Notes under the pieces: model-generated
The model's input: the letters and a program-made list of their open reading frames with translations, nothing else
The model's database searches: none
Told to the model about the DNA's origin: nothing
Shown: one piece after another, positions 1-38,395 of the stretch
Numbering within the stretch: position 1 is the first letter of the stretch
Layout: each line of letters starts with the position of its first letter
Translations under genes and position numbers: made by a program
IMG/VR virus record: IMGVR_UViG_3300020048_000135
Coordinates: 603 to 64,602 of that record
Direction: 5' to 3' (one strand)
Source: a virus
Taxonomy: Duplodnaviria > Caudoviricetes
DNA length: 64,000 nucleotides

Positions 1-897
1 GAATTTTCAGAAAATATTAACAATATTTTTTGTACTTTTGCAAATCAAGAAAAACATTCTTCAAGTTCTGGTAAATTATACCACCACAGAGTTTTAGAGG
101 GATTTGGGCAGAACGAAGATGAACCATTATTACCTTCATATTGATATGATACTCAATATCCTTTTGAACTTGAATTTGTAGTTGGTGCAATTCCTGGAGT
201 CCAAAAAATCTTTAACAATTTAAAAATAATATCTAACTTAGCAGAACCTTATTCATTTTATTATGAGGTATCTGGAGATAGTTATGATTTTAGTAAGGAT
301 AAAAAGATTATTCGTCTTTTAAATGATTTAACTGTATCAGTAATAGATGGAGTTACAATGCCAGATCATGCCGACGCTCCAAGAAGTGAGGCTCTTATTA
401 GAGCTAGGTATAAAGAATATTTAAAAGAAAAGCCGGAAGTTAAAAAACTTCCTTGAATTTATATACAATCATTTGATATTAATGATCCTGATTCTTTCTT
501 TAGAGATAGAGGGGATTTAGTAATACCATTTAATATGTCTATTTTAAAAGATATTAATTTAAGACAAAGTAATAAAAGTAGTGAAACTTTTTTAACTACT
601 TATCAAAGAGGATCAGACATTAAGAAATATGGAAGATTAAAAGGTAATATGCAGTATTTAGAAGATTCTTGGAATATTCAAATCCAACCTCTTAGTTTAA
701 AATATGGATACATTATTACTAATAATTCAGGAAGAACAAGTGAACCACCTGATCCAATAGAAGATCCTTTTAGATTTACTGATTTTAAAGATATGGATAT
801 CAGAGATAAGTATATAAAAATTAGGGTAAAATATAAAGGAGATCAACTTGTGATAATAAATGCACTAAAAACGCTATATACAATAAGCTATGCATAA
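1..897 (+). CDS. C-terminal part of crAss-like tail stabilisation (muzzle-like) protein; 5'-truncated; TGA=Trp
   Basis: Frame 1 is open from base 1 to TAA 895-897 if TGA at 142 and 454 is Trp. It contains YWYDTQYPFELEFVVG, QKIFNNLKIISN and a C-terminal RDKYIKIRVKY...TISYA, which resemble crAss-like tail stabilisation proteins. It lies directly upstream of the cargo/vRNAP cluster. Confidence 0.6.
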
Positions 898-1981
898 AAT
901 ATTAAAATATCAAGAACCCTCGGGAACATTGGGAGCTATAGATTGGTTTAAAAAAGCGTTAAGTAGTTTCTCTGCAAACAGAGAGTTAAAAAAGAAAGAA
1001 AAAACTGCATTATTAGAAACTCCAGAAGGACAGAAAGAGGCTGGTATAAAAGCAAATAATATAAATACAGGCGCAAATCTTATATCAGCTGGGTTAGATG
1101 TACTTCCAGAATTAGCTGGGGGAACAAAAGCAGCTGTAGGTAATCCAGGTTTAGATGCAGGTTTATCATTAGCGGCAGATGCTGTTGGAGCACTTGGGCC
1201 TTGAGGACAATTTGCTAAAATTGGAATTAAAGGTTTTCAAGCTTTAAATAATTATGCTGGAAAAACAGCTGATAGTCTTGCTACAGCAGGAGCAACAGCT
1301 ACTGGATATGATATTCAAACAAGTGATACAGCAGGTCTGAAATTTTCACTATTAAATAGTGGAAAAAAATTAAGAAATGCTAATAGACTTAATGCAAGTA
1401 AAGATGCATTTAATATGGCTGCAATACAAGCAACATATCAGAATAATCAAAACCAAATGGCAGCAGCCGGATCTTTATCTAATATAATGAGTAAGAATAA
1501 TATGGCTTTATACAGTGGTATGAATTCTAACATCGTATCAGTTAAATCTGGAGGGGCTCTTAAATCTATTAAAATTATAAAAGCTAGAGTTGGCGCTAAA
1601 ATTCAAAAGGCACAATCTGGAGAAGCTTTAGACTTGGGAAAAGTAGAAGATGTCATTACTCAGAATGTAATTCCAGAAGGAGCATTACATGCAAGATTAA
1701 ATAATTATGAAGGAGAACTTGGAGAACAAGTTACTAATAAAGGAATCCCAGTAATTACTTATGAAAAGGGAGATAAAATATTACAACACGCAGAAATTGA
1801 ACATTCTGAAATTATATTTAATAAAACTACTTCTGATAAATTGGAAGAATTATATAAAGAGTATAAAGATGCAGTAGATTCCAGAAAAAAGGAGTTAGAA
1901 ATAGAATGTGGTAAATTACTTACTGTTGAAATATTAGAGAATACAAATGATAATGTAGGATTATTAAACAATATAGAATAA
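890..1981 (+). CDS. 363-aa putative virion cargo protein with Gly/Ala-rich hydrophobic segment; TGA=Trp
   Basis: Track ORFs 890..1204 and 1415..1981 are in one frame and joined by a single TGA (1202-1204). It has a hydrophobic AGLSLAADAVGALGPWG segment and a C-terminal GALHARL...KGIPV...EIE..EIIF block like conserved crAss-like structural proteins. Confidence 0.6.
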
Positions 1982-2469: not shown

Positions 2470-2471
2470 TT

Positions 2472-4169
2472 ATGAGGTATATTCCTAAATATCAAAGAGG
2501 TGAGAAAATTCCCACATTAAGAGAATTTAATTCTACTCAAGACGGAACATATGTACAGTCAGCTTTAAATCCTATTGAAACACAGGAAGTTGCTAGGCAA
2601 GCTAATGATTTAAGGATTAAAGAAAAAGCTCAGTCTTTAACTGATTATTATAACCAACCTAATATGATAGGTGGTATGAAGCGTAAGCCTACTACAGCGG
2701 ATATAACTACACAAGCTACAAATTCCGTAGCTTATAATGAACAGCTTAAAAATAATCCTGTAGGAACTCTTGGACCTGATTTAGCAATGTCTCTTATACC
2801 AGAAGTTTTAATGCTTAAAACGCCACAGCAATTTATATCTAAAGTTATTTCTAGAGTTAAAACACCGCAATTTATATCTAAAAGTATTTCTAAACTTAAT
2901 CCTTTTAAAAATAATAATGCTTTACCAATGTTAAATATTGATAAGAATGCATATTATAGAGTAATAGGAAATAATGAGGGATATTTAGATGCTATAACTA
3001 GTAAAGTAATTAGACCTAATCAAACTGGAATATTTAAAGGAAGGCAAACATATTATACTAAAGGTGCTATAAATGATATTAATAATCCTGTTGTTAAAGG
3101 TGGGGCAAAAAAAGGAACTGTATATGCTGGAGATTATGTTGTAGAAGTAAAGCCAAATGATATTCATTTTCCTAAACCTGCTGATAATTTAAATAAAGAA
3201 TGAAATTTTGGATCTACTATGCCGGGAAATGAAATACCTATAGATTCAGAATTTGTAAAATTATATAAGCGTACTAAAAAAGGATATGTTAATGTAGATA
3301 AATCTCCTATCATTAGTGATAATATAAGTAAAAAAGGAATTAATGGAATTTTTGCTAATTTTGATCCCAGAAATTTAAAAACAGAATCTGGATTAGATTG
3401 AATGAAAAAATGACATTCACATCCTGATTTTGTAAAAAAGTATAATATTAATGGTAAGTATAGTGGCGATGCTATGCAACAGTATGTATTAGGAGAATTG
3501 GGTAAATATCAACCTAAGAATTATATAGATTTGTTAAAAGATAAAGGGTTAAAAACATATCTTCGACATTCTATTTCAAATTCTGGCGTATCGTGGGGAA
3601 CTGCTGATAAAATATATTATAACAGAACTCCACATTTACCTTTTAATAAAAGAGGTTTAGAGTCTACTAAAACACATGAATTAACACATTTAATAGAAGG
3701 CAATGGGCATCATTTAGGCCCACTTGAAGAACAGAGTTTATTAAAACCATTTGGGGTAAAAGATAAAAATGCTATTCCAAAAAAAGGAACTTCTCAAAGA
3801 GAATTTTTAGGATATGACCCAGAATATTTTTTAGAGCCTACAGAAATTCATGCTAGAATGAATGAAGCAAGATTTGAACTAGGACTTTCTCCAAAAGATG
3901 AATTTACTACAGGAATGTTTAATAAAATAGCTAAAGATCATGATTGGTATGGAATGGGGAAGTATATAAAAAATAAAGAAGATTTTAAAACTTTAATGAA
4001 TACCTTTTGGGCAACAACCCCTTTAATAGGAGTAGGAGCATTAGTTAATTCTAATAATCAAAAGCCTCAAATATCTAAATATCAAAAAGGAAAAGTTATT
4101 TATAAAAAAGAAAACTTACATATTATCCAAGAAACTCTTAACACTATAAAAGAATTATGAAAGAAATAA
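2472..4169 (+). CDS. 565-aa virion-module protein with zincin-like metalloprotease domain; TGA=Trp
   Basis: Track ORFs 2472, 3219 and 3474 share a frame and are separated only by TGA. HExxH motif THELTH at 3675-3689 is followed by EPTEIHARMNE. The first TAA is at 4167-4169 (TGA 4158 is an alternative end). Confidence 0.7.
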
Positions 4170-4723
4170 AAATAAGTATAGCTGGAAAAGAGTATTCTGT
4201 AAAATTAGCAGAAACTGATGAACAAAGAGAAATTGGTTTACAGAATGTTGACAGTTTAAAAGATAATGAAGGAATGTTATTTGTATTTTATGATGAAGAT
4301 ACTCAAAACTTCTGAATGAAGGACACTAAAATTCCTTTAGATATAATTTTTATAAAAGAAAATTTAAGAGTAGATTCAGTTCAAGAAGGTGTTCCAAATT
4401 CAGAAGATATTATTTCTGGAACAGGTTTATATGTTTTAGAATTGAATAAAGATTCTGGTGTAAAAGAAAGAGATATTTTGGAATTTAATCCTGATAAGAA
4501 AGTTAATAAAATGTTAGTACTAGATTCGGAAGGGAAGCCTCAGATGGAACTAGTAGGAGGAGAGAGAATCTTTTCTAGAGTACATACTAAGATACTTATA
4601 AAGTTTGCTAAAAGAGCAGCACTATTAGATGACGATAATAGCTACAAAGCGTTGGGTAAAAGAATGTTTAAATTTCTGGGTATTCAAGAGGATACAGAAC
4701 CAGAGTACGTTGAGAGCAAATAA
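4157..4723 (+). CDS. DUF192 family protein with C-terminal extension, 188 aa; TGA=Trp
   Basis: Reads GLQNVDSL...GMLFVF...FWMKDTKIPLDIIFI. The Trp of the DUF192 F-W-M-K motif is TGA 4313-4315. Confidence 0.85.
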
Positions 4724-4785
4724 GATGAAGTGAAATATGATTATGCAAATATTAAAATTAATTAAACTTAAATTAAATCAATCCG

Positions 4786-5043: not shown

Positions 5044-5054
5044 TAGCCTACCTT

Positions 5055-5092
5055 AAAAGGGAAGCAGAAAATCTGACTTCCCTTTATTTTTA
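5055..5092 (+). terminator. Intrinsic terminator
   Basis: Stem AAAGGGAAG-CAG / CTG-A-CTTCCCTTT followed by a T-rich tract, just after the stop at 5043. Confidence 0.7.
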
Positions 5093-5114: not shown

Positions 5115-8100
5115 ATGGCTCAAATAAAAAAATTACAAAACGGCAGTAAATTAACCAAAGAACAAAGGGCCGAAAAGAAATTGGAAAATTTTAATTTATC
5201 TAAAGAAGGAAAAGATTTAGTCATAGCTTCTTTAAATGAGTTTATGAAGTTAACTCCAGAACAATTTAAACAAACAGAATTAGTAGGTCCAGATTCTTAT
5301 GAAGTAACTGCCGGAGGAGATTACGATTTTTCTGGAAGTTCTGATCCAGTAAAAAATAATTGGCTTACTGGTAGATCAAAAGTTAAAGATCCAAATGATG
5401 CAAATAATATTGCTGCAACTATATATAGTCAAGTATTAAAAGAGTTAGATTTAGAAACTCAAGCGGAAGCTGAATTAGCTAAAAAGAATAGAAATAGCTA
5501 TGGAATTTCCAAATATGATTATAATTTAGAAGATGTTTTTGAAGATCAAGGAGTGGATGAGTGACTAAGTCAATACACTACTAATGAGGCAAGACAATCT
5601 GCTTTACTGCCTAAAATAAATGCTCATTTAGATAATTATATAACAAGGGCTGAATCAGATCCTAATAATACTTATACAGATGTTGATAAAGTAAAGACTA
5701 TGAGGGATGCTATTACTGCTTCTGGTTGAAAAGGATTTACAGATAATGCAACTACTTTAGGTTGGAATGATTCTAAATACTTATTATCAGCAAGCCAATT
5801 ACAAACTATAGCTGATAATAAAACAGCTAAAGATGCCGAAGCAAAAAAGAAAAGTGATGAAGAAGCTTTTAATGCAAGAGTTACTCAACTTAGTCAAACA
5901 CTTGGTTTCCCAGAAGAAGTAGCAGCAGATTTAGTTAAAAGAAACTTACATATATTTACCCCTTCCTCTGGTAATTATTTAGAAGAAGATTTACAAAAAT
6001 ATCTTAACGATAAACAATGATACGGATTTAGGGGAAATGAAGGAGAGTTAGTATTTTATGATAGAAATTTTGATCCACAACAAATATTAGGGTCTGATAT
6101 AGAAGAAGGTTCGGCTCTTTCTGGACATCAATGAACATATGATCAACTAAGAGGTAGGGCAGTTCATTCTGATTATACATACCCAATAGATGATTATCAA
6201 AGTATATTTAATATGATTCCAGTAGGACCATCAATTTCAGCATCAGCTCCTAGTGTTCCATGAAAAGGTTCTAATACTTATTTTCCAGGTAAAATGAATT
6301 CATCTTCTGATTTACAAAAAGAATTAGAAAAGTATGAGAAAGAAGTAGAAAATTTAATGAATAAAGATATTAATGGAAATTATATTGGATTACGTGAAGG
6401 CGGGAATAAAAATGCAGCTAATGATAGTCCAGCCGCAATATTAAAAAAGGCTTTAATAGATCATCATTATGATATACCATTAGCACAAAGAAAAAGAATT
6501 GTTGATTTACTAAGTCTTTATAATGAAGGATTAAGAGCCTTAAACATACAACCAGAAGCTGCAATTGATTACTCCGATCATTCTGATGCAAATGAATTTA
6601 GAATAATTGGTAATCAAATTACAAATGGTTTAAAAGGTTTCTGAGGTTCTGAAAATCCTAAATATAAAAAAGGAGGCATACTAAAATTTCAAGATGGAAG
6701 TATTTTTAAAGAATATAAGAAAAGAATAGAAGCAGAGAAAGCAGCTGCTCCTCCAAAAGAACGACAATTTACTACTCCTAAGGATATAAGAGGAACTTGG
6801 AAAGATATGGGAGCTGATGAAAAAGCTTGGAGAGCTACTTCTATTGCAGGAGCAGTAGGAAGTTTAGCTCCTGGAGTTGGTGCAATAGGAGCAGGTACTT
6901 CTCTTGTAGCTGACATAATGGCTGATGTTGTTAAGGATGGTTTTCAAGCAAGTGATGTTTTTAATTGGAATACGGCTTTTAACGCTGGGTTTGTAGGACT
7001 GTCTTTACTAGGTCTAGGGGCATTAAAACCCATTATGCAGGCAGGTAAACTTGGAAAAGCTGCGTCAACAGCTAAAAAGGGAACTGATTTAGCTGAAGTT
7101 TTACTTAAAAGTAATAAATTTAAAAGTTCTGAAAAAATTACAAAAGCTTTAGGATTAACTGATGAAGGATTTGAGGGAATAAAAGCACTTCAAAATTTTG
7201 CTAAGAAAAAAGGAATAAAAACTACTGAAGAACTAGTTGAAAGAGTAGGAAATATTTTAAAAAAAGGAGCTGATACTGGAAAGGATGCAAAATCACTTAT
7301 TACTAAAGAGACTGCTACTAAACTAGAACAAGGGGTAAAAGCTTTGAATAAAATAGTTGAAACTGCAAATCCTGTTATGGGTAATTTAAAACTTGGAAAA
7401 GTTGCAGGAACTTTAACATCAGCAGGTAAAACTGGAGCAGTTGCAAGTGGTAATGGAGCAGTAACTTTAGGTAAATGGGCAGCAAAAGCTGCAATGGTTT
7501 CTCCTTTAGTAACTGATTTGCCAAAAACTTTATATACAGGAGTAACTGATGGTTGAGAATATACAAAACCTCAAGATATTAAAAATATAGCTATTGGGGC
7601 CGCCTCTACATCAAAGTTATTTTCTAGATATATGAATGCAAGATCTATAAAAGGCAAAGAAAAACATTTAGTAGAACAAGCTAATAAAGCTAAAGAAATT
7701 GCTAAAAAACCTATTATTAAAGAGCCTATTAAAAATAGAACTTCTTTAGAAAATACTATTGGTCCAAAAACTAAACAAAGTAAGGCTGATGAAATAAAAT
7801 ATTCAAAAGAAGTTTTGATAGAAGAAAATAGGAAAGCTAGAGTAAATAATATGATTAATAATGTTGATGATATGAAAGGTAGTTTAGCTAGAAAAAGAAG
7901 ACAATCTTCTGCAATTTCTACAACTCCAAAAACTGAAGGTAAACAGCTGACACTATTTGAAAATACTCCAATACCAAAAGTTAGTAAAGTTGGAACTAAT
8001 GAATCTAATTTAGCTAAAATTAAGGAAGCAATGCGAGAAAAGTTGAAAAATTCTAATAGAACATCTAATTCTCAAAATAATACAAAACGATTTATAAAAG

Positions 8101-9611
8101 ATCCAGAAGGAAATTGAAGACAAGATAGTGATAATACTTTTACTTGATTTGCAAAAGCTGATACTAAAAAATTAGGCTGACAACAAGCTATAAACGAAAT
8201 GAAACTAAAAAGATCTTCTGGCAAACCAATAAATAAAATTGCCAAAGGAGGATTAATTCCTAAATTTCAAAATCCAACGTCTTTAGGTATTGCTGCAGCA
8301 TATATGACAAAAAATTATTTACAAGGTCTTAATAATACTAGAGAAGATTGATCTTGAATGTATAATAAACCATATGATAAATCATTTTCTAAAATGGGAG
8401 CATATCTTGAAAATAATACAGCAAAAATGGAGAAAGAAAAATATCAACTAAATTCTTCTTTTGCAAAAAGTTTAAGACCTGATTATATTGATCAGTCTAA
8501 GAAATTCTCTGATATGAAACCTTTTGATGTAAAAACTGCTAAACAAACTGAAGCGGATACTGGTAGAAGAGGATTACTTCCAAATTTACAACAATTAGGA
8601 AAATCTGCTCTTGGAAATTTAGATAATTTAAGTATTTCAAATGCAGCGATGTTTGCTTCTACTTTAAATGCTAATAGACAATTAGAAAAAAATAGAAGAA
8701 GAAGTGTAATTGCAGAAGGAAGTTTTAGAGAATCTTATATGCCTCAAGCTCCTTTTATTTCTCCATTAAATAGTGATACAATGCTTGCCCAAAGGTCAGC
8801 TAATGAATTAAGGTCTAGAATTAATAGAGGTACTAAAAGTATAAATATTAATGATGGGATTGCTGCTCAATTAGATGTTGAAAATCAAATAGCAGACAGA
8901 ATGTATGCTATACAATCTGGAGAAAAACAACGTAGAGATGGTATAAATATCCAAAATGCTAATAGTACTTATCAAACAAATCTCCATAATTTAGGAGTAA
9001 GTAATAGAAATAGATCAATTGCTGCTAAAACAGAAGCTGAATTAGCTAAAGATCCTACCGACTTGTTAAATCATACAGCTTTTACTAATTTTATAACTTC
9101 TGCAAATCAGAATTTTAAAGTAAGAAGTCATGGTAAAGCAGTAGATGATTATTACAAAACTATTAATAATAAGGATGTTATGTCAAAAGTAGAGGTTGCT
9201 CAAAAAGCTTATAAAGATCATATAGCAACTTATGATGCAACAAAAACTGCTTTTGAAACAGCTAATAAAGCTGTTGTTGGAGTTGATGGAAAACCAGTAG
9301 TTTTTGAAGAGCATTCAGCAGAAAATGCATGAAAAGCTAAGAAAGAAGAATTATATAATGCTGTTAAAACTGCTATGGAACCAATATCTGTTGCAAAAAT
9401 GAGGGTAGAACAATTTTCTATGAATCCTTCTTACTTTAGTAATCTTAGTACGTTTAATAAAAAGGGTGGAACTCTTGAAAGAGAAAAATTAGAAGCGCAA
9501 AAAACTAAAGACAGCTCTTCAAATAATACTAAAGAAAAAGAACTTTTATATAAAGCTATTTTTCATAATAATGAAATATTGTTAAAAACTTTATCAATAC
9601 TATTTAAGTAA
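5115..9611 (+). CDS. 1498-aa putative ejected cargo protein with membrane-inserting Gly/Ala-rich segments; TGA=Trp
   Basis: Six track ORFs share one frame. Manual translation of every gap shows only TGA (13 in total) and no TAA/TAG before 9609-9611. Hydrophobic segments lie at about 6830-7030 and 7400-7530. Confidence 0.75.
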
Positions 9612-11551: not shown

Positions 11552-14500
11552 ATGAATAATAATAAACCCAACGATATACTTGTTGCAACAATAAATAATC
11601 CTTCAGTATCTGCATATGATTTATTATCCAGTAATGTACTAGGAGATAATACTTCATTACATACAAAAGAAGAATATAAAAGTACTAAATTTATAAAAAA
11701 TGCTTTTACAACTGATGGAAAATTTGATGAAGTTGCTTTTGATAAAATGTATAAATTAGCTTCAGATAAATATGCTGAACTAACTAATGAAGAATATATT
11801 AATAGTTTAGATGAATTAGAATATAATCCATTTGATATTACAAGACCTAAAGAAGCTAAAACATATTCCGTTGGGAGTTTTTATAATAAAGAAATAAACC
11901 CCTTTAAAGTATCAAAAGGATGGTCAGGTATAGGAAGTGTAGATGAAAGCCCCTTTTCTTTAAGAGAAATAGCTCAACAAAGTAAAGTATATGATAAAGA
12001 AACAGATACTTGATCTGAAGAATCTTTAAATGATTTATCTATTAAAGATAAATTATTTGGGGAGACTTTAGTTTATGCTCAGTATGATAATGATGGAGAA
12101 CATGAAGATCTTGAATCTGGATATATGGTCAAACATAAAAAAGGAGATTGAATAGTAAATAAAGAAGGTAATATCTTTACTGAAAAATTAGGTAAAAGAG
12201 AGATTTATGGGAAACAAGTAGTAAATCCTTCTGATATAATGACTACTGATGGAAGTATATTTGATAAATTTAATTTCTTTGATTCTGATGATAGAGAAAA
12301 ATCTATTGCTGGAACTAGTTTTAAATTAGCTGCTCAAATTGCCCCATATGTAATACCTGGAGTTAATTTTTATTATGGAGGGGTTACAGCAGCAATAAAT
12401 CTAGCTGCAGTATTACCGACCTTTTATAAAGCGTTAGAAGGTATGTTGTTAGGAGATAAAGTAACTGGAGCTACTAAATTAGCTACTGCAGGAGAAAATT
12501 ATTTAGCAAAATTTGTTCAGAATAGTATATCTGATGAATCTCAAGATTCTTTATTTAATTATGAACAAATGGGACAGTTAGTTACATCTGTGTTTGCTCA
12601 AATATATCAACAAAGGGCTGCTGCTAGTTTAGCTACTATTGTAAAAAGTCCTAAAAATCAATTATTCGATAAAAAACTTAAAGAATTATTAGATGAACCT
12701 AATAAAAATTTTATTAAAAACAATTGAAAACTTAAACTTAAAGGCGTTGAGATAGGTGAAGAAGCAGAGAAAAAAATATATGCTTCAATGGCTGAAAAAA
12801 TTCCTGGCTTAAAAGAGTTAAGAGAACAACAATCTCATATGGCAAAAGCTTTTAATCTTGGTTATATGGCTATGGTTACAAGTGCTGATATTTATGGAGA
12901 AGCGATAGAAGGAGGGTACGATAGAAGAACAGCTGGTTTTGCAACTTTAGCAGCAACAGCTGGACAATACGGGATAATGATGAATAATGAAATGGGAACT
13001 TGGTTTTTAGATAAAACTACTGGCTATGATATTAATACTAATAAAGTATTAACAAGAAAAGCTATTAAAGACTTTTTACCTGAAATTAAAAAAGCATTTC
13101 AAGCTAGATCTAAAGACGGGCAAAAAATTGCTTTATCTAAAAGTTTTAAAGGAATTAAAGAAAAGTTTAATGATATATTCTTAAATCCATCTGAATTAGG
13201 AGAAAATCTTTTTAAGCATTCTATAGTAGAAGGTGTGGAAGAGGTTACAGAACAATTAGTTTTAGATTCTACTAAAGGTATGATAGATGTAATGAGTTAT
13301 TTAGGACTTACAAAAAATCAAGGATCTTTTGGAGGATTTGACAATGTATTTAGTAAAAAAGGATTAGAAAATTACCTTGCAAATTTAGTAGGAGGTATGA
13401 TAGGTGGGCCATTATTTGAATATAATTCTACTAAAATAGAGCCAAAAATTAATTCTTTATTTAAAAATAAAATAGTACAACCAGAAGTAAAAACTTCGAT
13501 ATATCAATTAATTGGGAATGGCAAAACTAATGAGTTAATAGCAGAAATAAATAAACAACGTAAGTTTTTAGGTAATAATTTTATTAATTTAGCCTCAGTA
13601 GAAGGAGATGTTCAACCAGCAGAAAAAGTCGGAAAATCAGAAGCTGATATAATAGCCGACAATGCTATTGGAATTGTTAAAATAATAGAAGGGATAATGA
13701 ACTCTAATGCATTAGTTAAAACTAATGAAGAAATTGTTCAAAAAGCTTTTATAGATCATTTAGTTATAGAAGGTCTGGAAAAAGCAAAAGAAAATTTTTC
13801 TACTGGAGTAGAGGGTCTTGTATTGAATGATTATACTAAAAATTTAGATCTTTTGGTAGAAAAAAATCTAGAAATTTTAGAACTTCAAAAAAATACAACA
13901 GAAGCCTCTAATAATGAGTCTATAAAACAGTTAAAAGAAGAAGCTTCTGTTTATAAAAATAATATTAATGATATTTTAGAGGGTAAAAAAGCCCAGCATT
14001 ATTTTGATAGAGTTGTTACTTATTTTAATAAAGATCTTCTTAATTCATTTGTTGCCGTTGATAGAGATTCTTACGCTAAAATAAAATATAAAAAAAGTTA
14101 CTATGATATGCCAGAAACTGGTATAGGCTTTACTAAAGAAAAAGTTAATAAGGAATGAAAAGAATACAAAGATTCTGGAGACATAGTTAAAGACTTAGAA
14201 GTTGCTGTAGAAGCAATTTTAAATCTTGAGCAATTAAGCAATGAGGCTGTAACTAAATTTTCTGAATCTGGATATGATGTTCAAAGAATAAAAAGTGGAA
14301 AAGATCTTATTAATATGATTGCAACTAATTCTTTATTTTCTACTGAAAAAGAAAGTAAAGGCGCCTCTTTTGCACAATTTTTAGAAATGTCAAAAACTCT
14401 TGGTAAAAAAAGTGGTAAGAAAATACTTCCTTGAGATGTAATAACAACTAACTTTTTTGAAGGATTGTTAAATAATAATTTCATTATTAATTCTAATACT

Positions 14501-20500: not shown

Positions 20501-20614
20501 TTTTTAGAAAATCTAAAAGATTTAATGTTTGATTCCTTAAATACTACTGATGGAACAGAGCTTGGAGAATATGCAAGCTTCTTAGATGATAAACTAATAA
20601 AAAATTGCAATTAA
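11552..20614 (+). CDS. 3020-aa giant virion protein with SF1 helicase-like domain; TGA=Trp
   Basis: One frame with 16 TGA and no TAA/TAG until 20612. Motifs: Walker A GNTGTGKTT (16769-16795), Ia WFAAPYKDQA, Walker B LFIDE (about 17102-17116), III GDIAQ, V IQGAESD, VI YITRA. Confidence 0.85.
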
Positions 20615-26600: not shown

Positions 26601-29600
26601 CATAATTTTAATAAACAAGTTTATGAATTGTTTAAATTATATTCTGGGTATACACCAAAGAATTATGAGTCTTTTAATGCATATTTAAAAAACAATTTAG
26701 AATCTATTTTAGATCAAGTTTCTAAAAGAACTTATGTATCCTGAGAAAAGTCTACTCAATTTGTTGCTTCTCGTATTCCTGCTCAATCTATGCAATCTTT
26801 TATGGAAATGAATAATGTTGGGTACTTTAATACTAATAATAATGAAGTTTATGTATCTATATGACAAATAGTAATACAGGGATCTGACTTTGATATTGAT
26901 AAAGCTTATTTAATGGGATATGGGTTCAATAAAATGGGACACTATGAAATAGCAAGTGATGCTTTTAAATTTACTACTAAAGAATCTTTAGAAGCAATAG
27001 AAGCATTACCAAAACCCTCTAGAAAAACAACATCTTTTACATCTGGAAATAAAGAAGTATTAGATATTTCGTTAGAATTTAATAAATTTGTAGAAAGTTT
27101 TGAAAGTCTTGAAAATATAGACCCAAATTCTTTAGGAAAACTTGAAGATTGATTAGAAGAAATTGCCAATCTAGAAGAATATACTGAAGATATGTTAATT
27201 AGTGGAATAAGTATTCCTGTAAAAAGTATAAAAATTATAGGAGATATTTTAGAAAAGATAAAAAAATCAAATATAGTTAACATTGATTATTTATATAAAC
27301 CTCTTATAAGTAAAGATTATCAGGAAAATATATTTAATGAATATAAAAAAGTGTTAGTTAATTTAGTTAATAATCACAACACTTCTAAAAATTATACTAA
27401 AAATAAATTTTCTCAGATTAATGCAAATGTTTCAAATATAAGAAAAATAATATCAGATCCAGCAAATCAACTTTGAGCAAATAGTCCAGTTGATTTTGAT
27501 CCTTTCAATGAAGGTGCTGAGGAAGTTATTAAAGAAAGGGAAGAAAAAAGAGAGAAAAGAATTTCTGAAATATTAAAGGATAATGATGTTAATACAAAAA
27601 TAGAAGATATAAAAGACTCTTTAAAAATATTATCTGAAATAAATTCTTTGTATAAAGTAATAGTTCTTAAACCTGCAAAAACTTTAGGAGAATATATTAA
27701 AGAAGCAGAAAGAATTAACATGTTGAAAAATACTCTGTCTGGACACGATATGGTTAGTATGTTTAAACAACAATCTGATGCTATTATAGGTAAAAAAGAT
27801 GTGGGTATTGGTGCAAATGGTCTAAAAGTAATGTTTGCATTAAATTCTTATTATAATAAATATTATAAGTCTTTAGCCGTAAGATCTTCTGATAATGCTT
27901 TATTAGATTCTAAAGGAAAGACAGTAGATCCAATGAAAGATCCTAAATGGTTTGAAAAAACTTTAAATATGGGAGGTAAAATTGGAACGATTACTAAAGC
28001 AACTATAGCTGATGTTTGACTTAATGATAATTTAAAAGGAGCTATACTTAATAGTCTTGGTTTAGAAAGTCAACAAAATTTGCTTAGTATTGTGCAAAAC
28101 GGAATGGCGGCTATATATATCTCAGGATTTGTATCTGCAGCAACAGATAATGCTAAAGAGTTAATTATGGCTAAAATTAATGCTATTAATGAACTTGCTT
28201 CTATGCATTTATATTTAATGATGTTAGGACTTAGTGCTGAACAAGTATCAAGTTATATGACTTCTGATCTAGCAAACCATGTTGTTTCTAAAATAAATTC
28301 ATCTAACATATATGAAAATGCTAAAGGAATGAGTGTAAATAATATTATAAAAAGTTATATTAAAAACAATCCTTCAGAAGAAACTTTAGCAAAAACATTT
28401 ATTGATGTATATCAAGGGGCACAAGAATTTTCAAATTTAGCCGGGTTATTAAAAATAAATCAATCTACTAGTGCTGATATTAATAGTATGTTTTTATTTT
28501 TAAATAAATTTAATACTGCTATGTATACTAGAGAACATGCAGTATTAGAAGAAAATCTTTGAAAATTAAATTCAGAAGAACATTTAGATGAGGCTGTACA
28601 AATAATAATGACTAAAAATCCTAAGTTATCTGAATCTTATATTAAAAATGTTTTGGGAAAAGCTTCTAATATAAAAGTTAATACCATAAATGAAAAAGGG
28701 GAAATTGTTACTAAAACAACTTCACTTTTAGCGGGAGGATTTGATTTTAGATATTATATAGAAAACGATAATGTAAATTATAGGGAAGTTGCTATAGAAT
28801 ATTATAATTTATTTAAAAACACAATTAACATATTTGATGTAATAGAAGATTCTACACATTTCAAATCAATGATTAAAGGATTAAGTAATGTTCATATGAG
28901 TGCTATGATTGTATCTAAAAAATATAATTTTGTATTTAATACTGCTTTAGACATTATTAGAGAAAAATCTCCTGAAATATATAATAATAATCAAAAAACA
29001 ATAAAAAATTATTTAGGAAATTCTAAACTAGTAATAAATTTAGATGATAGAATTATAGGAAAATTACTTAGAGGATATGATGGATTTGTAGTATCTGCGT
29101 GAACTAAGACAAATGATTTAAAAGATTATCAAATAAGTATTAAGACTCTTTTAGAGCAATCTGGATTAGATAAATTTGAAGCTTACGTAAGTGACGATGC
29201 AAAAATTAATCCTATAGGAAAATCTGATGAAGGAACTAAAACTATCATGGTAAATTCTGAAGAAGATTTAATAATAGATTTAACTTCTGATTTTGGAATA
29301 GCCAACTTTAAAAAAGCTATGGAAGAATTAATTTTTCCTATATTAAAAAGATCTCAATCTTCTCAATTAGGATCTTTGCTAAGATTAAAAAGTTTAAGAA
29401 ATCCATATGGTTTATTTACTTCTCAAATAACTCCTACATTTGGTATAAGTTCTTTGGATAATGCTGTAAATGTAACTAAATATCAAGCTTTATTACACGA
29501 TTTTAATCAAGTAGATTTTAAAATAGAATCTGAAAATAAAATAAAAAATAAGGATAAAAATATTTTAAGATATAAAGATTTATTTTATTTATACAATCTT

Positions 29601-30032
29601 ATAGTAAATAATGAACAGTATGGTGATAATAGACTTACTCCAATATTTCAAGATTATGTAAAGGATAAAAATAGCATAGCTTATAAATATCTCGATTTTT
29701 CAAGAAAAATAGATTTAAGAGAAGTTGATATATTTAAAATAGATATTGATCCTACTTTAAATGATGGTTCTAAAAATGTGCTTTATGATAAACTATTACA
29801 TAGTTTTAAAAATGATGTTATATTTTTAGCATTAAATAAAAGAGGGGCAGTAAATGTAAAAAGATTAGGTGCTACTGCTTCTACTCAAATTGCAGTGAGA
29901 AATTCTCATTTCATTATAAATACTCATGCTGATGTTTCAGCTAATATAGATGTAGAAAAATATACTCAATATTCGTCTTTATTATCTATACTTAATAATT
30001 CAAACTTACTTATAAACTTTAAATGCGATTAA
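20616..30032 (+). CDS. Virion-packaged multisubunit-type RNA polymerase (crAss-type, single 3138-aa chain); TGA=Trp
   Basis: One frame with 15 TGA, ending at TAA 30030. SRIPAQSMQS is followed by the catalytic GSDFDIDK (DFDID 26886-26900), the motif known from crAss-like vRNAPs such as phi14:2 gp66. Confidence 0.92.
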
Positions 30033-30033: not shown

Positions 30034-33000
30034 ATGAAGTGTTATTATTACATAAAACTTCCAAATGGTGGGGAACTTAGATTCCCCGCCACTTTTTCAA
30101 CTTTATCTTCTAAAGATAATAAAGAGCTTAGAGATTTAATAAATAAATTTAAACAAGCTAAAACAGATGCTTTTAATGCTTTACAATCTTATGTTAAAAA
30201 TAATACTGGACTTTCAGGTCAGGCTACAGTACTTATAAATGAAATTCAAGTAGATCATAATCTTATAAGCGACGAAGATTTTGAAAAATTTATAACAAAT
30301 ATAAATGATAAAGTAACAGCTAAAGGAGAGTATGCTGAATTACAGAAAGCTATAAGTCAAGTTATTTTTAGCAAAAAAGGTAAAATAGACTATTTTAATA
30401 AAAATGAAAACTGAGTAAGTATAAAACCGGAAGAAGCTATTCAAAAATTAAAAAATCCAGTTCATATTGATTATTTTGGACAAGTAGATTTTGAAAATAT
30501 AGTTGGGACACTTAGTTATAACGATTTACATGAAGAAAATGTAATAAAAACTCTTGAATTAGATTCATTTGGATTAAATTCCAATTTTCCAAGAAATTTA
30601 GATAAATTATTAGGTTTTGCTTTTCCAAATAAAAATTACAACAGAGTTCAAAAAACTTTTTTTAAAACTACTTTTTCATCAGATTCAGTTATGGGAAAAG
30701 ATGATTCCATAATAATATACGATGAACATTTGAGATTGCCTCTTATATTTGTACAAGAAAATAGTCAATTATCTTTAAATTTTGCAATGCTTAAAGTTAT
30801 TGCAGTCTCTCTTTTTGAAAATAAACCTGACTATTTAAAAGAGATTATACAAATGTATAATAAGAAAGCACATGAAACAAATCAAATAGATGTAAATATT
30901 GAAATAAAAGAGTTTTTTACAGGAAAAGTAATAGATGGAATAAGATCGGATCCAGAATTTTATAAACTTTATAAATTTGCATATGGAGAAGATGCATTAA
31001 GTTTATTAGCATCAAAAATGATAGAACTTTTACCAGCACAAAATGAAGATTTAAAAAACCCTATTAAAAATACAATAGGATTAATGTCTCCTAAAAATTT
31101 GAGTAGCTTTAATAAATTAATAGAGCAAAAAGAATTTGTAAAAAGTTCTAATAAAGAACAAATCGTATTATTTGAAAAATATCAAATAAAAGATATATTG
31201 CCTTTATTTGAGAAGGATAAAAGAACTTCTTATTATAATATAGAGGAAGTGATAGGTCCTTTTGAATCTTCTATAGATTTGTTTAATTATTTAAATTATA
31301 ATATAAGAAAAAACCTTGATTTAGTCAAAGTTTCAATAGAAAATAAAAAATCCGGTGAGGTTAAAAATAGATATATAACTCCATCAGTTATAAAAGTATA
31401 TGGGGATGTTGTTTTTATAAGAGGATGATATAGTCAAAACGGAACTCCTACATCATATTCAGGTGTATTAGATTTTAAAAAATCCTTGTCGATAAATAAA
31501 TTTCACTCTAGTAAAAAACCAGATATTTATTCTAGTAATATGACTGAAAAACTTGTAAGGCCTATAATTATTAAAATAGACTCTGAAAACAAGATGCCTG
31601 ATTCAGTAATAAAAAGTTTAATTCATAGAGGTAGTTATGTAGAATATACCTATGAAAAAAATGAAAAAGATGAAAAAACTGGAAGTATTGTAAGAGTAGA
31701 GAAAAAAGGAAAGGGAACAGTAAAAAATGTACTTCCTGGAGAGATACAACTAAATCCAGTAATATTCAAAGATAAATCAATTAGTTTTTCTCCAACTATG
31801 TCTAGTATCACATTGATACATAGTAATATAGAAGAATTAGGAGGATTTATTTATAAAGAATTTGCAAAATTAAAAGATTTAACTTTATCCCAAGAAGAAG
31901 AATTAGATAAATTTTTAATTGGAAAAAGTCAACTAGCTATAAAAAGTCTTCAAACGTGAGATAGTACAACTCCTATATCAAAAGGAGATTGAGTATCTAT
32001 AAATGCAGGTAAAAATAGCAAAGGAGAAGATTTAGTTGTACATAATATGGTAGTAGGAAAATCTAAAGACACAGTTTACATATTAATACAAACAGCTAAA
32101 GGTAGTAGAATAGAATCTATTCCAAAAACTAAAATAACTAATGTATTTAAGCCTAAAGTTAAATTTGATAATGATAAAAGAAGAGAAATAGGTGAATTTT
32201 ATTCAAAAGTTATGGAGGAAAGATCTATTAGACAACATGAATATTCAATGTTTTATGATGCAAATAAACTGTCAGATGGAGACTTTGCATGATCTGAGTC
32301 AAAAAAGATATTATATACATTAATAAACAAAGAGTCAAATGAATTTATCAATTTTTCTATAAAAGATGGAGAAGAATCTGTAGAATATTCAACTTCATTA
32401 CCTAAAGATGTTGTATTTATTACTAATAAAAACATTGCAGATGATAGCTATGGAGTTTATATAGACTTTAATAATTTTGATCTAATAACTACTGATAAAT
32501 TAGAAGAAAAGCAAGAAGAAAAAATGTATCTTATTCCTGAAAATATGGATGTGACTATAGATAATCTCTTGCCATCTGGTAATCTTAATATAGGATTAGT
32601 AAAAGATAAAGATTTTGTTCAAAATTTTGAAGAAGACCCAACAATTTATAAAGATGTTACTAGACAGGTTATAGAACTTATAAATTTAAGAAGGAAAGAT
32701 ATAACTACTGGTAAAGGTACTAAAATGTTAGCTATAAAACATTCTGAAGGAGGTTTTTATAAAAGGTACGATTCAAATTTATATCAAGTAAATTACTCAA
32801 AAGAATATGTTAAGTTTCTGAAAGATTATGCATTTATATCTTTAAGAAAAAAAGAGATAGTAAATGGTAAAGAAAAAGAAGTTATAAGTCATAAATATAG
32901 AATTATTGCTAATGATGGAAAAAAATTAATTCTTGAATACAATGTATTTAATAAATTTGGAAAAGTAATTACAGTTAGTAAAACATTAGACTTAGAGACA

Positions 33001-33756
33001 GAAGGAGATAATATAAAGTATTTGTTTGTAATGAAACATAATTCCGATTATGCAGCTGTTAAAAAGATTAATGAAGCAACTAAAATAAAAGAAGAGAAAC
33101 TTTCTAAAAAAGAAATGTTTTCTGGTATAATAACAGCTTTTCATCGTTTATACAATATTGATGTAGAAGTGAGGTCTTTAGAAGACGGTTTAAAAAAGAC
33201 TAAAAAAGCTTATATTCAGGCATCTTCTGCAGGAAATAAAATAGTAATAAATAAAGATTTAGATGGGTCTGAAGAAGAGATACTTCATGAATACCTACAT
33301 TTATTTTTATCTGCAGCAAAATATAATAATTCTAATATATATGAAAAGCTATTAGTGAATTGATTAAAAGTTACAGGTCAATCTTTAGAAAATTTAAATT
33401 TAATAGAAGCTGAAGAACTTTTTGTTTTTGAAGTTAGCACTCGAATGACAACAAATAGGGAATATTTACTAAATATAGACATGGAAAGTTTTTTAGAATT
33501 ATTTAGTGAAATATTAAAACAGTTAAAAGTAATAGAAAATGATGATAATACATTTAATCCAAAAAATGGAACCATTCAATCAGTATTTCATATATTAAAT
33601 TATAAAATGTCTGATATATCAGCATTTAAATCTTTAGGATCTTCTTCTAAATCTAGAACTAACTTACTGTATTATGATTTAAACTTTAAAGAATGAATGG
33701 AAAAGCTTACTACAGGGGGAGATGAAAATAATAAACTAATAATAAATTGCGAATAA
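30034..33756 (+). CDS. 1240-aa vRNAP-associated protein with zincin (HExxH) domain; TGA=Trp
   Basis: One frame with 7 TGA, ending at TAA 33754. KAYIQ...IVINKD...EEILHEYLHLF (HExxH at 33286-33300) with a downstream EELF. Confidence 0.8.
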
Positions 33757-33757
33757 A

Positions 33758-36700
33758 ATGAGTTGTAGATATGAAATAATTATAAACGGAACAAGAGCAG
33801 AATTAGATTCTATATTAGATTTATCTAAATATTATTATATAAATGGAGGGACTCTAAATACTCAAAGAGTATTTAGCTCTGTTCAGGATGTAGTAAATAC
33901 TTTAAATACTGTATTAGGAAGAACAGACGCTATAAAGAAAGATGATAAGAAAACTACTATTACTAAATTTATATCAGAAGAAAATAAAATATTTAGAAAA
34001 TTAGGATATAATAAAGATAGACTTTCTCCGGAATATGTAGAAGAAAGTAGAGTATTAAATTCTGTACTAAAAAATCTTCCATTTAAAATGTCTCAAGGAG
34101 TAACTTCTTTACAAGATTTAATTGATAAAGTAGAAAAAAATCCAGAATATAAAGAAATTTTTGAAAGCAGTTTAAATAATATTAAGAGTATTATAGAGTC
34201 TGAAGAACTTGGGAAGAATTTTGGGATATCATTACATAAAGCTTTAGCTTTAATAATAAGAGGTGCCAATTTAGATGATCAAGTTTTTAAAATATTAAAA
34301 GAGCATGAGGATATATTAGATAATAAAGAATCTTGAAAAAATAAACTCACTGATACATTATCTAAAATACATAAAGAAATTGCAGTGCTTATTAATAATG
34401 GAGGTACTATATTCTCTGAATTTAATGTAGATTCTGTAGAAGGTTTAATTCCTTTAAAAGGATCAGCTGATATTATTCTAGTAGATTCTGAAGGTAATTT
34501 GCATATTTATGATTTAAAAGTTTCAAAGCATGATTATGCAGATTGGGATTCTGCAAAAGTACTATATACTGATTATCAATTAGCTTTTTATAGAGGATTA
34601 TTATCTCAATATGTAGATATTACTAATGCAACCTTAAACATAATACCTATTAAAATAGGACAAATATATAAAAGTTCTGAAAATGCCAAAGGGCAACTTT
34701 TACATTCAAATTTTCACTATAATAAACAAATATCATTACTAACAGAGTCTAGTAAAGGACTTCATTCTAATGGAAAAATAACTAAATTAGTAGAGCAGAT
34801 CTTGCCTCCTAAAATGAATATTCAAGCAAATGACAAAGTTATAAAAGATTTTAAAGATGATTTAAATATATTATTACCTAATTATGAAATTAAAACTAAT
34901 AATGCAGAATATAATGTAGATAAAATTGTTGATTATGCAGAACGTAATGGAAAATTTGATATATTTAATAGCTTTACTAAAGATTCTTTAGAATTAGTAG
35001 AAAATCTAGGGAAATTAGGATTTAAAGGAGAAGGCGATATTTTTAAATATGAATGAGGGAATATGGCTCTTGCAGAGAAAAAGAAAAAATATAGAGAGGC
35101 TATTGAAATTTATGTTGCATATGCAAAACAACATAGAAATAATAACTTAATAAGTCTTAAAAATTCTATAATGTCTGCTATTAATAGTGGAAAAAATACA
35201 ATTACCTGAAATAATAAATCTATTGAAACTAATTTAAATAATCTTTTAAAACCATATTTATTAGGAAATTATAGGCATATAAATGGAATAAAAGAACTAG
35301 ATGATTTAGGCTTAATTCTAATGCAAAATAAATCTGACAATAGTTATAGTATATTAAGTATAAGTTCTTTTCTTCAAGAAGCATCTTATAGTAATGATTT
35401 ATTATTTGGGGACTTGGAATATATTAAATCTTATTTATTTTTTAATAATTTTTATGATGTTTTAAGAATTGATAAAAATAAAATTGAAGATATAATAGTA
35501 TTTAATCTACAATCCGGCAGTTACTATTATAGAGATCTAGATTCTACCTTTGAATCTTTTAATAATTTAATGAAACAAAGACCTTTAAATAATAGATTAG
35601 ATTCATTTACAAATTTAAAAGATACTATAGAAAGTGCTAAATATATTATAAGAAATGTTTTAAGATCATATAATAAACCTAATAAAACAACTTTAGAAAC
35701 TATATTATCTCCAATTATTAATGAGTCTATTAATGTAGAAGATTTAGCAACTGTTAAATTAAAACAGCTGATGTCAAAATTTAGAGATGAATTTCCTCAA
35801 ATCACATCAAAAAAACCTAAAGATAGCTTAAATTTTAATGATGATATTGAATATTTATATGGAATATTATCAAGAATATTACTTTTAAAAGAAGATATAA
35901 CTCCTTATGGAGATACTGGGAATTTAAAGGAATTTGGAGTATCTTTTTCTGATGTTAAATCTATTTTTAAACCATTTTTTAGTGATAAAAAAGAGGAATA
36001 TGATGCTAATGGAAGAAGAATACAAGGAATAATTGGTGGGACAATGACTATCCCTCCTGATAAAATATCATCTGTAGACTTAAGAAATATTAATTCCTTG
36101 ATTAATAGTGGAAACTCATTTGTAAGACAAATATTTTATAAACAATCTTCTCATTTAAGAAGTTTAACTAGAGGCTTTTTCAAACAAATAAATTATACTC
36201 CATCTGAACAAAATTGGTTAGGTAACTATAGAAATAAATTTGAAGGAATGTGAGTAAAAGATGGAGATTCTATATCAAATGCATGAAAAGTAAAAAATCC
36301 ATACTTATATGATGTTAATAATTCTATGAAAGACTCTGAAAGAGCTTATTTAACAAAATTGCTTTTTGAGATAAAAAGATGAGAATTAGGAATTTCTGAA
36401 AGTTCAGATATAAATATAACTTCATTGGATACTTTAAAACAATCTAAAGACGGATTAAAAGTATTGGAAGCTATTGAATCTGGAGAGTATTTTAGAATGC
36501 CTTTAGTTAAAAATCAACAATTAACTAAAGTTGGGGCATTGTGAAAAGATGGGTTTTCTGGATGAGTAGATAAAGCTAAAATGATTGGGGAAGAATTTAA
36601 TGACTTCTTTGATGAAAGAGAATTACATGAAGAAGAACGTTCAAATATTTATAAAAAAGAATTGGGCTACTATGAAATGTATAATATATATGAAATGCAA

Positions 36701-38395
36701 TTAAATAGAAGCGGGTTTATAAAAGAAATGGTAGATAAAAATTCTCCACAATATTATGAATTAAATCTTGATATAATTGCTCATAGAGTGGCTTTCGCAA
36801 AAATAAGACAAAAATACATTGACTCTATATTACCTACTATTAATGCGTACATGTGAGAGATGAAATTAAGAGCTGGTATAGGTAATCAAGATATTTCAAA
36901 TGCTTTAGACTATATAACTCAAAGAGTTAAAACTGCTTTGTTTGATTCTCCTAATGTTTCAGAAGATGCCATAGATGCAGTAAAAATAGTAGCTCCTTTA
37001 AAGGCTATTACAACTGCTGGAATGCTAGCTTTTAGACCTATGTTATTACTAAAAGAATTAGGTGTTGGACTATATAAAGGAATAGCATTAGCAGCTACTA
37101 AAATATATGGAACTCAACAATTTGGTATAGAATCTTATTTTAAAGCTTTGGGAAAATTAGCTACTATTGATAAAAAAGCTTCTTCAGAATTTAATTTAAT
37201 AGATGCTATTAATTTTTACTATGGTTTTGCGAATACTGATGCTAATAGTCTTGTCCAAAAAATGCAAACTAATAGAAGAGGAATTTTAATGGGGTTAGGT
37301 CCATGAATGTATTCTACAAGTACAGCTCCTGATTATTATAATAGACTTTCATTATTTTTAGCTAAGATGATAGAAGAAGGTACTTATGAAGCACATTCTA
37401 TAGTGGACGGATATTTACAGTATGACGCCACCAAAGATAAAAGATTTACAAAATATTTTGCAAATAGACATCTTCATAAAAATAGTGCAGGAAAATATAT
37501 ACCAGCTAAAAATGATGAAGAATATAACAAACAAAGAAATTTGTATACCCTTACTATGAAAGAGCTTAATGAGAATGGCGAAAGATTTGGTAATGTTGAG
37601 TTAACTGAAGAAAATGATATACTTCCACAGGCTTATTCTGAAAAAGAAAGACTAAGTTTTAAATCTTTTGTTGATACTGTATATGGTTATTATGATAAAG
37701 ATTCGCAAGCTTTATGGCATCAAACTTGATATGGTATAATTTTTCTACAATTTTTACAATTTTGGCCAGGAAAGATGAGTCAATGGTATGGAAAAGAAAT
37801 TACTGCAAAAGAAAGTATGATGGGAGAACACGTTCAAAAAACAATCACTCGTGATGGTAAAAAAATACCTATATGAAGAAAAGCTATATATAGTGATTCA
37901 AATCCAGAAGAAATTTTAGGATTCAGTGAAACAGAAGAATATACTGGAGATCCTCATATAATATGGATTGGAAGACCACAAGAAGGTTTAATGCAATCAA
38001 TATTAAAAACTGCAAGGTATTTTTTCCATGGAGAAATGGGAGAATTTAAAAGTGATGAATTACTTCAAAAAAGATTTCTTTTTGGAATCGCTGACGGATT
38101 ATTAATGATGTTATTATTTGGAATAATAGCGAAACTTTTAGCAGGATGAACTGAAGAAAATGGAGTTGAAGGACTTGAAGAGGATACTATAAAATTCTTT
38201 CAAAAAGTTGCAGAAAAAGCAGAAAAAGAAGGAAGTTTACCGCAAAATACATTTGGAGCTATAAATACAACTCCTGCTTTTGTAAGCTATGGAACTAAAC
38301 TTTGAACAGATATGTTAGATGTTTTTGAAGGTAATAAAACAGTGTCAGACTTTTCTAAAAATGTAAAAGCTTTTGAATTATTTAATCAAGAGTAA
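33758..38395 (+). CDS. 1545-aa giant virion protein with PD-(D/E)xK nuclease domain and C-terminal hydrophobic helix; TGA=Trp
   Basis: One frame with 14 TGA, ending at TAA 38393. GISLH...GSADIILVD...IYDLKVS...YQLAFY (about 34220-34590) fits a RecB/Cas4-like PD-(D/E)xK nuclease. TM-like GIADGLLMMLLFGIIAKLLAG lies at about 38085-38145. Confidence 0.8.

Follow-up and report, generated by a model that had tools for sequence, protein, structure and literature searches.

The 64,000-nucleotide stretch of DNA analysed here (the window) belongs to a phage genome written in two genetic codes, in which TGA specifies tryptophan in a virion block on the + strand, the block on the - strand keeps to the standard code, and the recoded codons are probably decoded by a phage-encoded tRNA(UCA). 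The contig corresponds to ~37% of a large crAss-like phage genome, the full length of which was estimated to be near 175 kb, and the G+C content of the window is 27%. As judged from profile matches in the homologous genome MT835470 (Crass_capsid, 4e-14; crAss_MUZ, 2e-27), the lineage appears to be crAss-like.

Distribution of TGA between the two strands

The late block, which encodes virion or ejected proteins, occupies positions 1 to 38395 of the + strand and comprises 11 long genes. The early block, devoted to replication and nucleotide metabolism, extends from 38445 to 64000 on the - strand. The timing labels late and early were derived from gene functions alone. A 17-bp, G+C-rich hairpin (38401 to 38440, assigned to neither strand), with an A run on one flank and a T run on the opposite flank, is likely to be a two-way terminator and lies exactly at the seam of the two convergent blocks and of both codes.

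Coverage of the + strand by open reading frames of at least 100 aa rose from 0.725 under table 11 to 0.997 when TGA was read through, and reading through TAG instead gave no such rise (0.736). In the - strand block, read-through of TGA increased coverage only from 0.779 to 0.797. Under table 11, positions 1 to 38395 of the + strand were broken into 31 open reading frames of at least 150 aa; under table 4, the same region resolved into the 11 long genes, the largest coding for proteins of 3020 and 3138 aa. The first-pass annotation had reported about 80 in-frame TGA codons interrupting 11 + strand genes, and we counted 80 TGA and 30 TGG in these genes, TGA accounting for 73% of the Trp codons of the late block (82 TGA versus 32 TGG if all + strand open reading frames of at least 80 aa between 1 and 38395 are included). 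Late frames were interrupted by TGA alone, never by TAA or TAG, and did not require frameshifts. All 13 stops of + strand genes were TAA or TAG, and TAG stops were located at 2467, 53193, and 58007, as expected from the earlier claim that this codon still terminates translation.

Genes of the - strand contained 131 TGG codons and no internal TGA, and their stops comprised 40 TAA, 4 TAG, and 7 TGA. The restriction of recoding to the late strand and the uninterrupted state of the long - strand genes, both noted in the first pass, were thus borne out, as was the use of TGG for all 11 Trp codons of NrdJ. At the ratio found in the late block, the chance of observing no TGA among 131 early Trp codons would be ~5e-73, and A-ending codons make up 82 to 95% of the NNA:NNG pairs other than Trp in early genes. 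Besides NrdJ, the block (38445 to 64000) encodes a DNA ligase, a dNMP kinase, a Thg1-like protein, an RNA ligase, a DHH-domain protein, a ThyX-like protein, a metallophosphoesterase, and an HNH protein. It also contains a peptidoglycan-hydrolase-like (lysozyme-like) gene (38445-39164, - strand). Since this gene belongs to the standard-code block, not every typically late function is gated. The vicinity of the lysozyme-like gene yielded no membrane-spanning segments, and a lysis cassette could therefore not be defined.

Tryptophan as the residue specified by TGA

Relatives of the phage were obtained by tblastn against phage records, from a protein collection, and with an early-gene query; megablast against phage records returned nothing, and queries with late proteins returned no relatives among IMG/VR or JGI metagenome contigs. 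The closest complete relative found (163,048 bp; 44% amino acid identity) carries ~20 tRNAs and is considered circular because of a 55-bp end repeat. Among 67 TGA codons that could be aligned with this 163-kb genome, 36 faced TGG, 5 TGA, 8 a Phe codon, and 3 a Tyr codon, against a background in which TGG represents 0.7% of all aligned codons. The rate was similar for the TGG codons of the window itself, 17 of 26 being opposite TGG. TGG was present in at least one relative at 39 of the 67 TGA sites alignable to any relative.

Individual genes gave the same picture. The first gene (1 to 897, + strand; 2 TGA) is the 3' part of a crAss-type muzzle gene truncated by the contig end. It scored 26.8 bits against Pfam crAss_MUZ_C, for a cut-off of 27, and is homologous to an MT835470 gene matching crAss_MUZ at 1.9e-27; its TGA at 142 is opposite TGG in three relatives. 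In the DUF192 gene (4157 to 4723, + strand; Pfam, 1.9e-23), the TGA at 4313 lies within the F-W-MK motif, where the first pass had placed a conserved Trp; the position is occupied by W in two solved structures (PDB 3pjy and 3m7a), by TGG in two relatives, and by TGA in the 163-kb relative. In the DUF5856 or Dps-like (ferritin-like) gene (1981 to 2469, + strand; 2 TGA, no TGG, TAG stop), the TGA at 2155 was paired with the W of HW in a Dps protein, the match being weak (E 0.2). For the 3020-aa protein, which has an SF1-helicase-like P-loop core (11552 to 20614, + strand), the TGA at 16853, attributed earlier to helicase motif Ia, is opposite TGG in three relatives, and the TGA:TGG ratio was 16:5, as counted previously. 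All three coordinates given for these conserved Trp positions (4313, 2155, and 16853) hold.

The 3138-aa protein (20616 to 30032, + strand) is a putative virion RNA polymerase based on its size, its position, and a DFDID motif. The label remains an inference, because this giant protein had no profile or PDB match. Searches with the giant proteins returned no PHROG match and no PDB sequence match, and their Pfam matches were confined to P-loop domains. The ratio of 15 TGA to 7 TGG agreed with the previous count, and 10 of these 15 TGA sites had TGG or TGA in at least one relative. Six of the seven TGA codons of the 1240-aa protein (30034 to 33756, + strand; no TGG) faced TGG in the 163-kb relative. 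The remaining long genes discussed here encode a 1498-aa virion protein without family assignment (5115 to 9611, + strand; 13 TGA, 6 TGG) and a 1545-aa protein that closes the late block (33758 to 38395, + strand; 14 TGA, 6 TGG) and has an orthologue with a PDDEXK_1 match in the 163-kb relative.

Over five relatives, 193 aligned cells were opposite TGA; TGG was the most common partner (58 cells) and Gly never occurred. These alignments support the reading of TGA as Trp in the late block. A reading of TGA as something other than Trp (code 25 Gly, selenocysteine, or Cys), or of the genes as pseudogenes or products of assembly errors, has nothing in its favor beyond the presence of in-frame TGA. 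We consider this negligible, given the absence of Gly from the aligned cells, the number of sites (82 being far too many for selenocysteine), and frames broken by TGA alone with no need for frameshifts.

A host in which TGA is already a Trp codon (code 4, as in Mycoplasma or Spiroplasma) would abolish any switch and any timing, and the first-pass annotation had named it as one of the refuting cases, beside TGA aligning with Gly. Such a host would suit the low G+C content (27%) and a contig devoid of a suppressor tRNA. It is nevertheless very unlikely from the sequence evidence, since none of the 131 early Trp codons is TGA despite the strong A-ending bias and TGA acts as the stop of seven early genes. 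Gene order is shared with relatives that have the standard code (MT835470) or TAG recoding in the same block (MT835492), three other relatives being TGA-recoded, and the tRNA(UCA) carried by one relative would be needless in a code-4 host. The crAss-like lineage argues in the same direction, as does the lack of a Shine-Dalgarno signal: sites were found at 0 of 10 late starts and 5 of 49 early starts, a background level and a pattern as in Bacteroidota.

Probable decoding of TGA and proposed timing of late translation

The suggested search for a tRNA-Trp(UCA), a release factor, or a TrpRS identified none of them on the contig (~37% of the genome), even when relaxed. In the window, ARAGORN allowing introns and lowered thresholds found no UCA anticodon, Rfam at E values up to 5 returned only the tRNA-Arg, and blastn with the tRNA(UCA) of the relative gave only 10-base chance matches. 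The sole tRNA of the contig is a tRNA-Arg(UCU) (57914 to 57987, - strand), which is not a suppressor. An intergenic element at 52631-52716 folded no better than shuffled sequences on the - strand (z -0.66) and displayed no loop resembling a UCA anticodon. A 94-nt tRNA-like gene of near relative G003 was rejected as a suppressor, its anticodon being GUA (Tyr).

The 163-kb relative does carry a Trp-type tRNA(UCA) (positions 5429-5521 of that genome), with A1-U72, G73, and the anticodon loop CUUCAAA. It is similar to the tRNA-Trp(CCA) of the same genome, and the CCA anticodon hairpin is repeated in the variable arm of the tRNA(UCA), possibly to let the host TrpRS still charge it. The phage contig of this relative also lacked genes for a TrpRS or a release factor. 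That contig was binned with a Bacteroides MAG in which class I release factors are encoded by two genes or more, binning being weak evidence. For other phages, insertion of Trp at UGA by a phage tRNA(UCA) has been demonstrated (PMC12636597). Speaking against a phage-encoded switch, Borges et al. (preprint 10.1101/2021.08.26.457843) detected suppressor tRNAs in just 35% of the genomes of code-4 phages.

We propose that a Trp-type tRNA(UCA) encoded by the phage reads the TGA codons of the late block; its gene would be situated in the two thirds of the genome that the contig lacks, on the model of the closest complete relative. Charging would be by the host TrpRS, and the tRNA would compete with host RF2. 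Early genes would be translatable from the first minute, and full-length late proteins would be made only after the tRNA(UCA) had accumulated. Read-through late in infection would cost little, because TAA or TAG follows the early TGA stops within 1 to 15 codons. The earlier proposal that a phage-encoded switch turns the code into a timing gate stood as regards confinement of recoding to the virion strand, the switch itself being an assumption for this DNA. We infer the gate from the tRNA(UCA) of the 163-kb relative and from the literature, where it is a hypothesis.

Recoding may also be real and suppressor dependent without an evolved timer, A+T mutational pressure converting TGG to TGA at every site able to bear the change once a suppressor tRNA is available late in infection. 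Early genes would then retain TGG only because they are read before the suppressor tRNA exists, and the suppressor might be maintained mainly to disturb host translation, as discussed by Yutin et al. (PMC7886860). This account is possible, although we favor it less than the timing gate. At 0.73, the TGA share comes close to the proportion of A-ending codons in other NNA:NNG pairs (0.84 to 0.95), and among relatives TGA makes up a growing part of the aligned Trp codons as G+C drops (~15% at 32% G+C, 25% at 30%, and 62% at 25.6%). Both mutational drift and selection for a gate are compatible with this pattern. Sense TGA codons are evenly distributed across all late genes, and the following base shows no bias of the kind that selection against RF2 would suggest. 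Drift is less easily reconciled with the absolute partition (0 of 131 versus 80 of 110 Trp codons) coinciding with the terminator. A near relative has open reading frames inserted within its early block that are heavily recoded, unlike the genes next to them, and control at the level of single genes points to something beyond drift. The timer and drift accounts differ in purpose and share the same mechanism, and sequence alone cannot separate them.

A further and rather doubtful reading is that the gate, with a Trp tRNA(UCA) like that of the 163-kb relative as the missing switch, does not time lysis but shields the cell against enzymes that the phage itself ejects (the giant helicase, the RNA polymerase, and the PD-(D/E)xK protein). 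What is recoded is exactly the block of virion cargo, which ends at the two-way terminator, and the sole lysozyme-like gene keeps the standard code.

Relation to known split-code phages

Published work already covers both the opal recoding of late genes in crAss-like phages and the idea of a timing gate. Opal and amber recoding of late genes with suppressor tRNAs has been described in crAss-like phages (Yutin et al. 2021, PMC7886860; PMC12386605). The window shares with the Zeta group of these phages (PMC7886860; Lera, PMC12386605) a large genome (~175 kb estimated here; 163 kb in the relative), a low G+C content, homing-endonuclease genes, the use of TGA for Trp mainly in structural genes, including those for the muzzle, RNA polymerase, and helicase, and adjacent branches that differ in code (TAG, TGA, or standard). 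The phage would be a candidate member of this group; the TerL, portal, and MCP genes fall outside the contig. Recoding in the window is denser, at 73% of late Trp codons, and its limits are exactly those of the strands. In Lera, TGA occurs in the lysin and holin genes, whereas the sole lysozyme-like gene of the window has no TGA.

The code-switch timing model for alternatively coded gut phages (Borges et al., preprint 10.1101/2021.08.26.457843) similarly involves early genes in the standard code, structural genes forming one recoded unit, in-frame stops aligned with Trp, and late translation proposed to need a phage suppressor tRNA. The code-change module of that model (tRNA, TrpRS, and RF1) was not found here or on the phage contig of the 163-kb relative, and the model stresses a lysis cassette, which the window does not contain. 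Contiguous blocks with one code each are also a feature of the multi-code genomes reported with Mgcod (preprint 10.1101/2022.06.29.495998), and the window is a textbook example with two blocks. Phages of code 4 Mollicutes or code 25 Absconditabacteria likewise have TGA as a sense codon, but their whole genome is in the host code, unlike the window, half of which avoids sense TGA and in which TGA is not Gly.

The contig opens no new question. Annotation with table 11 breaks its 11 recoded genes into ~30 fragments, and a two-code gene finder is therefore required. It provides a very clean instance of the published split-code layout, with an absolute strand partition and a terminator at the seam. 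Its close relatives span standard, TAG-recoded, and TGA-recoded states, making the clade useful for studying the origin of such codes.

Two gene blocks and two genetic codes

The window is a 64,000-base part of a linear viral contig of 64,602 bases, which has no end repeat and is 37% complete according to CheckV, implying a whole genome near 175 kb. Its G+C content is 25 to 32%, the sign of the GC skew switches near 38 to 40 kb, and two convergent gene blocks meet at 38.4 kb. The late block (positions 1 to 38395, + strand) comprises a crAss-type muzzle gene inside which the contig begins (crAss_MUZ_C match, 26.8 bits), a Dps-like DUF5856 gene, a DUF192 gene, and genes for several very large proteins. 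One of the latter (3020 aa) has a helicase-like P-loop core. Another (3138 aa) contains a DFDID motif and is labeled only provisionally as a putative virion RNA polymerase, an identity for which no supporting profile or PDB match was found. The early block (positions 38445 to 64000, - strand) encodes NrdJ, a DNA ligase, a dNMP kinase, a Thg1-like enzyme, an RNA ligase, and DHH-domain, ThyX-like, metallophosphoesterase, HNH endonuclease, and lysozyme-like proteins. A 17-bp G+C-rich hairpin, bordered by an A run and a T run on opposite sides, occupies the exact junction of the blocks (38401 to 38440) and resembles a two-way terminator.

Table 11 leaves the + strand block fragmented into many ORFs, which become 11 long, tightly packed genes under table 4. 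Comparison of the two tables for each strand, based on ORFs of at least 100 aa, revealed that the gain in coding density was largely confined to the + strand, where TGA read-through increased coverage from 0.725 to 0.997, the - strand block being nearly unchanged (0.779 to 0.797). TAG read-through afforded no gain in + strand ORF coverage. The in-frame TGA:TGG ratio was 82:32 in all + strand ORFs of at least 80 aa and 80:30 across the 11 long genes. Recounting reproduced exactly the ratios that the first-pass annotation had reported for the helicase giant (16:5) and the putative polymerase (15:7), as well as the 11 Trp codons of NrdJ, all TGG; TGA at 4313, 2155, and 16853 and TAG at 2467, 53193, and 58007 were found where it had placed them. 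The frequency of Trp codons is 0.87% in late proteins, roughly half that in early proteins (1.63%). The stops of the + strand are exclusively TAA (11) and TAG (2). Those of the - strand are TAA (40), TAG (4), and TGA (7), each TGA stop being followed by TAA or TAG 1 to 15 codons downstream. The genes of this strand, the long ones of which had been described as uninterrupted, contain 131 TGG and no internal TGA. The layout is a strict two-code one, TGA specifying Trp in the virion and cargo block.

The standard-code strand ends with a gene (38445 to 39164, - strand) that encodes a Phage_lysozyme2-domain protein (3.8e-33) and is free of TGA. In published recoded phages, lysis genes rank among those with the most recoding. 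No membrane-spanning proteins were found among the neighbors of the lysozyme-like gene. The genes for an RNA ligase (PHA02142 OB-fold), a Thg1-like 3'-5' polymerase, and tRNA-Arg(UCU) cluster within 5 kb on the - strand (53193 to 55629 and 57914 to 57987), possibly forming a tRNA repair set in a phage dependent on a special tRNA. The intergenic region from 52625 to 52722, a proposed structured RNA, has a - strand fold no better than that of shuffled sequences (z = -0.66) and is not a tRNA according to Rfam and ARAGORN.

Identity of the residue encoded by TGA

Late genes were translated with X at TGA and aligned to five related genomes, and the codon facing each X was read. The closest complete relative, a circular contig of 163,048 bp (the 163-kb relative) with a 55-bp end repeat, displays 44% amino acid identity with the window over 11,504 aligned codons. 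At the 67 aligned TGA sites, this relative has TGG in 36 cases and TGA in 5, the remaining sites facing mostly Phe, Tyr, Ile, or Leu; overall, TGG accounts for 0.7% of aligned codons. TGG codons in the window itself are matched by TGG at 17 of 26 sites, so TGA behaves like an ordinary Trp codon. Among the five relatives, TGG was present in at least one genome at 39 of the 67 alignable sites, and Gly in none of 193 aligned cells. The TGA of DUF192 faces a conserved W in two solved structures, and that of DUF5856 aligns, though only weakly, with a Dps protein's HW tryptophan. The assignment of TGA to conserved Trp positions was upheld. Code 25 (TGA as Gly), selenocysteine, and pseudogenization were ruled out.

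Code states in related phages and in the host

The block of muzzle, DUF192, helicase-giant, and polymerase-giant genes is common to the window and to the related phage genomes MT835470 (117 kb, carrying Crass_capsid and crAss_MUZ genes) and MT835492 (122 kb). This single block is found in three codes: standard in MT835470 (L001 to L003), as in the rest of that genome; TAG recoded in MT835492 (L004 to L006); and TGA recoded in the window. The counterpart in MT835492 is so massively recoded that no ORF of at least 100 aa is left under table 11, and no suppressor tRNA was detected in that record. Three other relatives are TGA recoded. Since relatives are standard, TAG recoded, or TGA recoded, the code flips within this crAss-like lineage, as described for the Zeta group (Yutin et al. 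2021, PMC7886860).

It is unlikely that the host itself reads TGA as Trp (code 4), because early NNA:NNG pairs are otherwise 82 to 95% A-ending, yet TGA:TGG is 0:131; because seven early genes stop at TGA; because one relative encodes its own tRNA(UCA); and because Shine-Dalgarno sites are found at only 0 of 10 late and 5 of 49 early gene starts, which is the background level. Bacteroidota and their phages typically lack such sites. The 163-kb relative was binned with a Bacteroides MAG, which is weak host evidence; this MAG has two or more genes for class I release factors.

Proposed suppressor tRNA and timing of late gene translation

The first-pass annotation proposed that a phage-encoded switch gates translation of the virion genes. 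The sole tRNA on the 37%-complete contig is tRNA-Arg(UCU), and neither a suppressor tRNA, even with relaxed searches, nor a TrpRS or release factor was found there; the switch in this phage is therefore inferred, not seen. A candidate is provided by the 163-kb relative, which encodes a 93-nt tRNA(UCA) on its late strand (L041:5429-5521), separate from its ~20 early-strand tRNA genes and ~2.4 kb ahead of the first gene containing in-frame TGA. Neither a TrpRS nor a release factor was found on that phage contig. The tRNA(UCA) (A1-U72, G73, loop CUUCAAA) resembles the tRNA-Trp(CCA) of the same phage, and its long variable arm (5-bp stem, 7-nt loop GUCCAAA) duplicates the CCA anticodon hairpin of tRNA-Trp. 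The long-arm design recurs in other viral contigs (L139, L148, L172, L188, L198, L205, and others): a pattern scan of viral contigs yielded 21 tRNA(UCA) genes, 13 of them 93 to 100 nt long and most of these 13 with a similar ..CCAAA.. loop.

In the proposed mechanism, a Trp-type tRNA(UCA) whose gene lies in another part of the genome would compete with host RF2, and full-length late proteins would appear only once this tRNA had accumulated. Back-up stops near the few early TGA stops would limit damage from late read-through. Drift under A+T pressure, with no selected timer, also fits the late TGA share (0.73), which is not far from that of A-ending codons in other pairs (0.84 to 0.95), and the climb of the TGA share among relatives as G+C drops. 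However, the partition of TGA between the blocks is absolute, and G003, the nearest relative of the early block, has recoded insertions amid TGA-free orthologues of the window's early genes. These ~10 ORFs (100 to 315 aa, with 2 to 7 TGA and 0 to 1 TGG; for example, G003:C1 positions 3956 to 4741, 7037 to 7636, and 8747 to 9421) lack homologues in the window. One is lodged between two parts of the DNA ligase gene, suggesting recoded homing-endonuclease or intron ORFs. This pattern matches the recoded homing endonuclease described by Borges et al. (preprint 10.1101/2021.08.26.457843), which was taken as delayed expression. Both a selected timer and drift are compatible with the sequence.

Opal and amber recoding of late genes, together with suppressor tRNAs, is documented in crAss-like phages (Yutin et al. 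2021, PMC7886860), including Lera and other opal-recoded Zeta phages (PMC12386605); insertion of Trp at UGA by a phage tRNA(UCA) has been demonstrated (PMC12636597), and Borges et al. have put forward a timing and lysis-control model. The window is a known phenomenon, correctly read, in a new genome, to which it adds minor local points: an exact strand partition with a terminator-like hairpin at the seam, dense recoding, and a lysozyme-like gene in the standard code.
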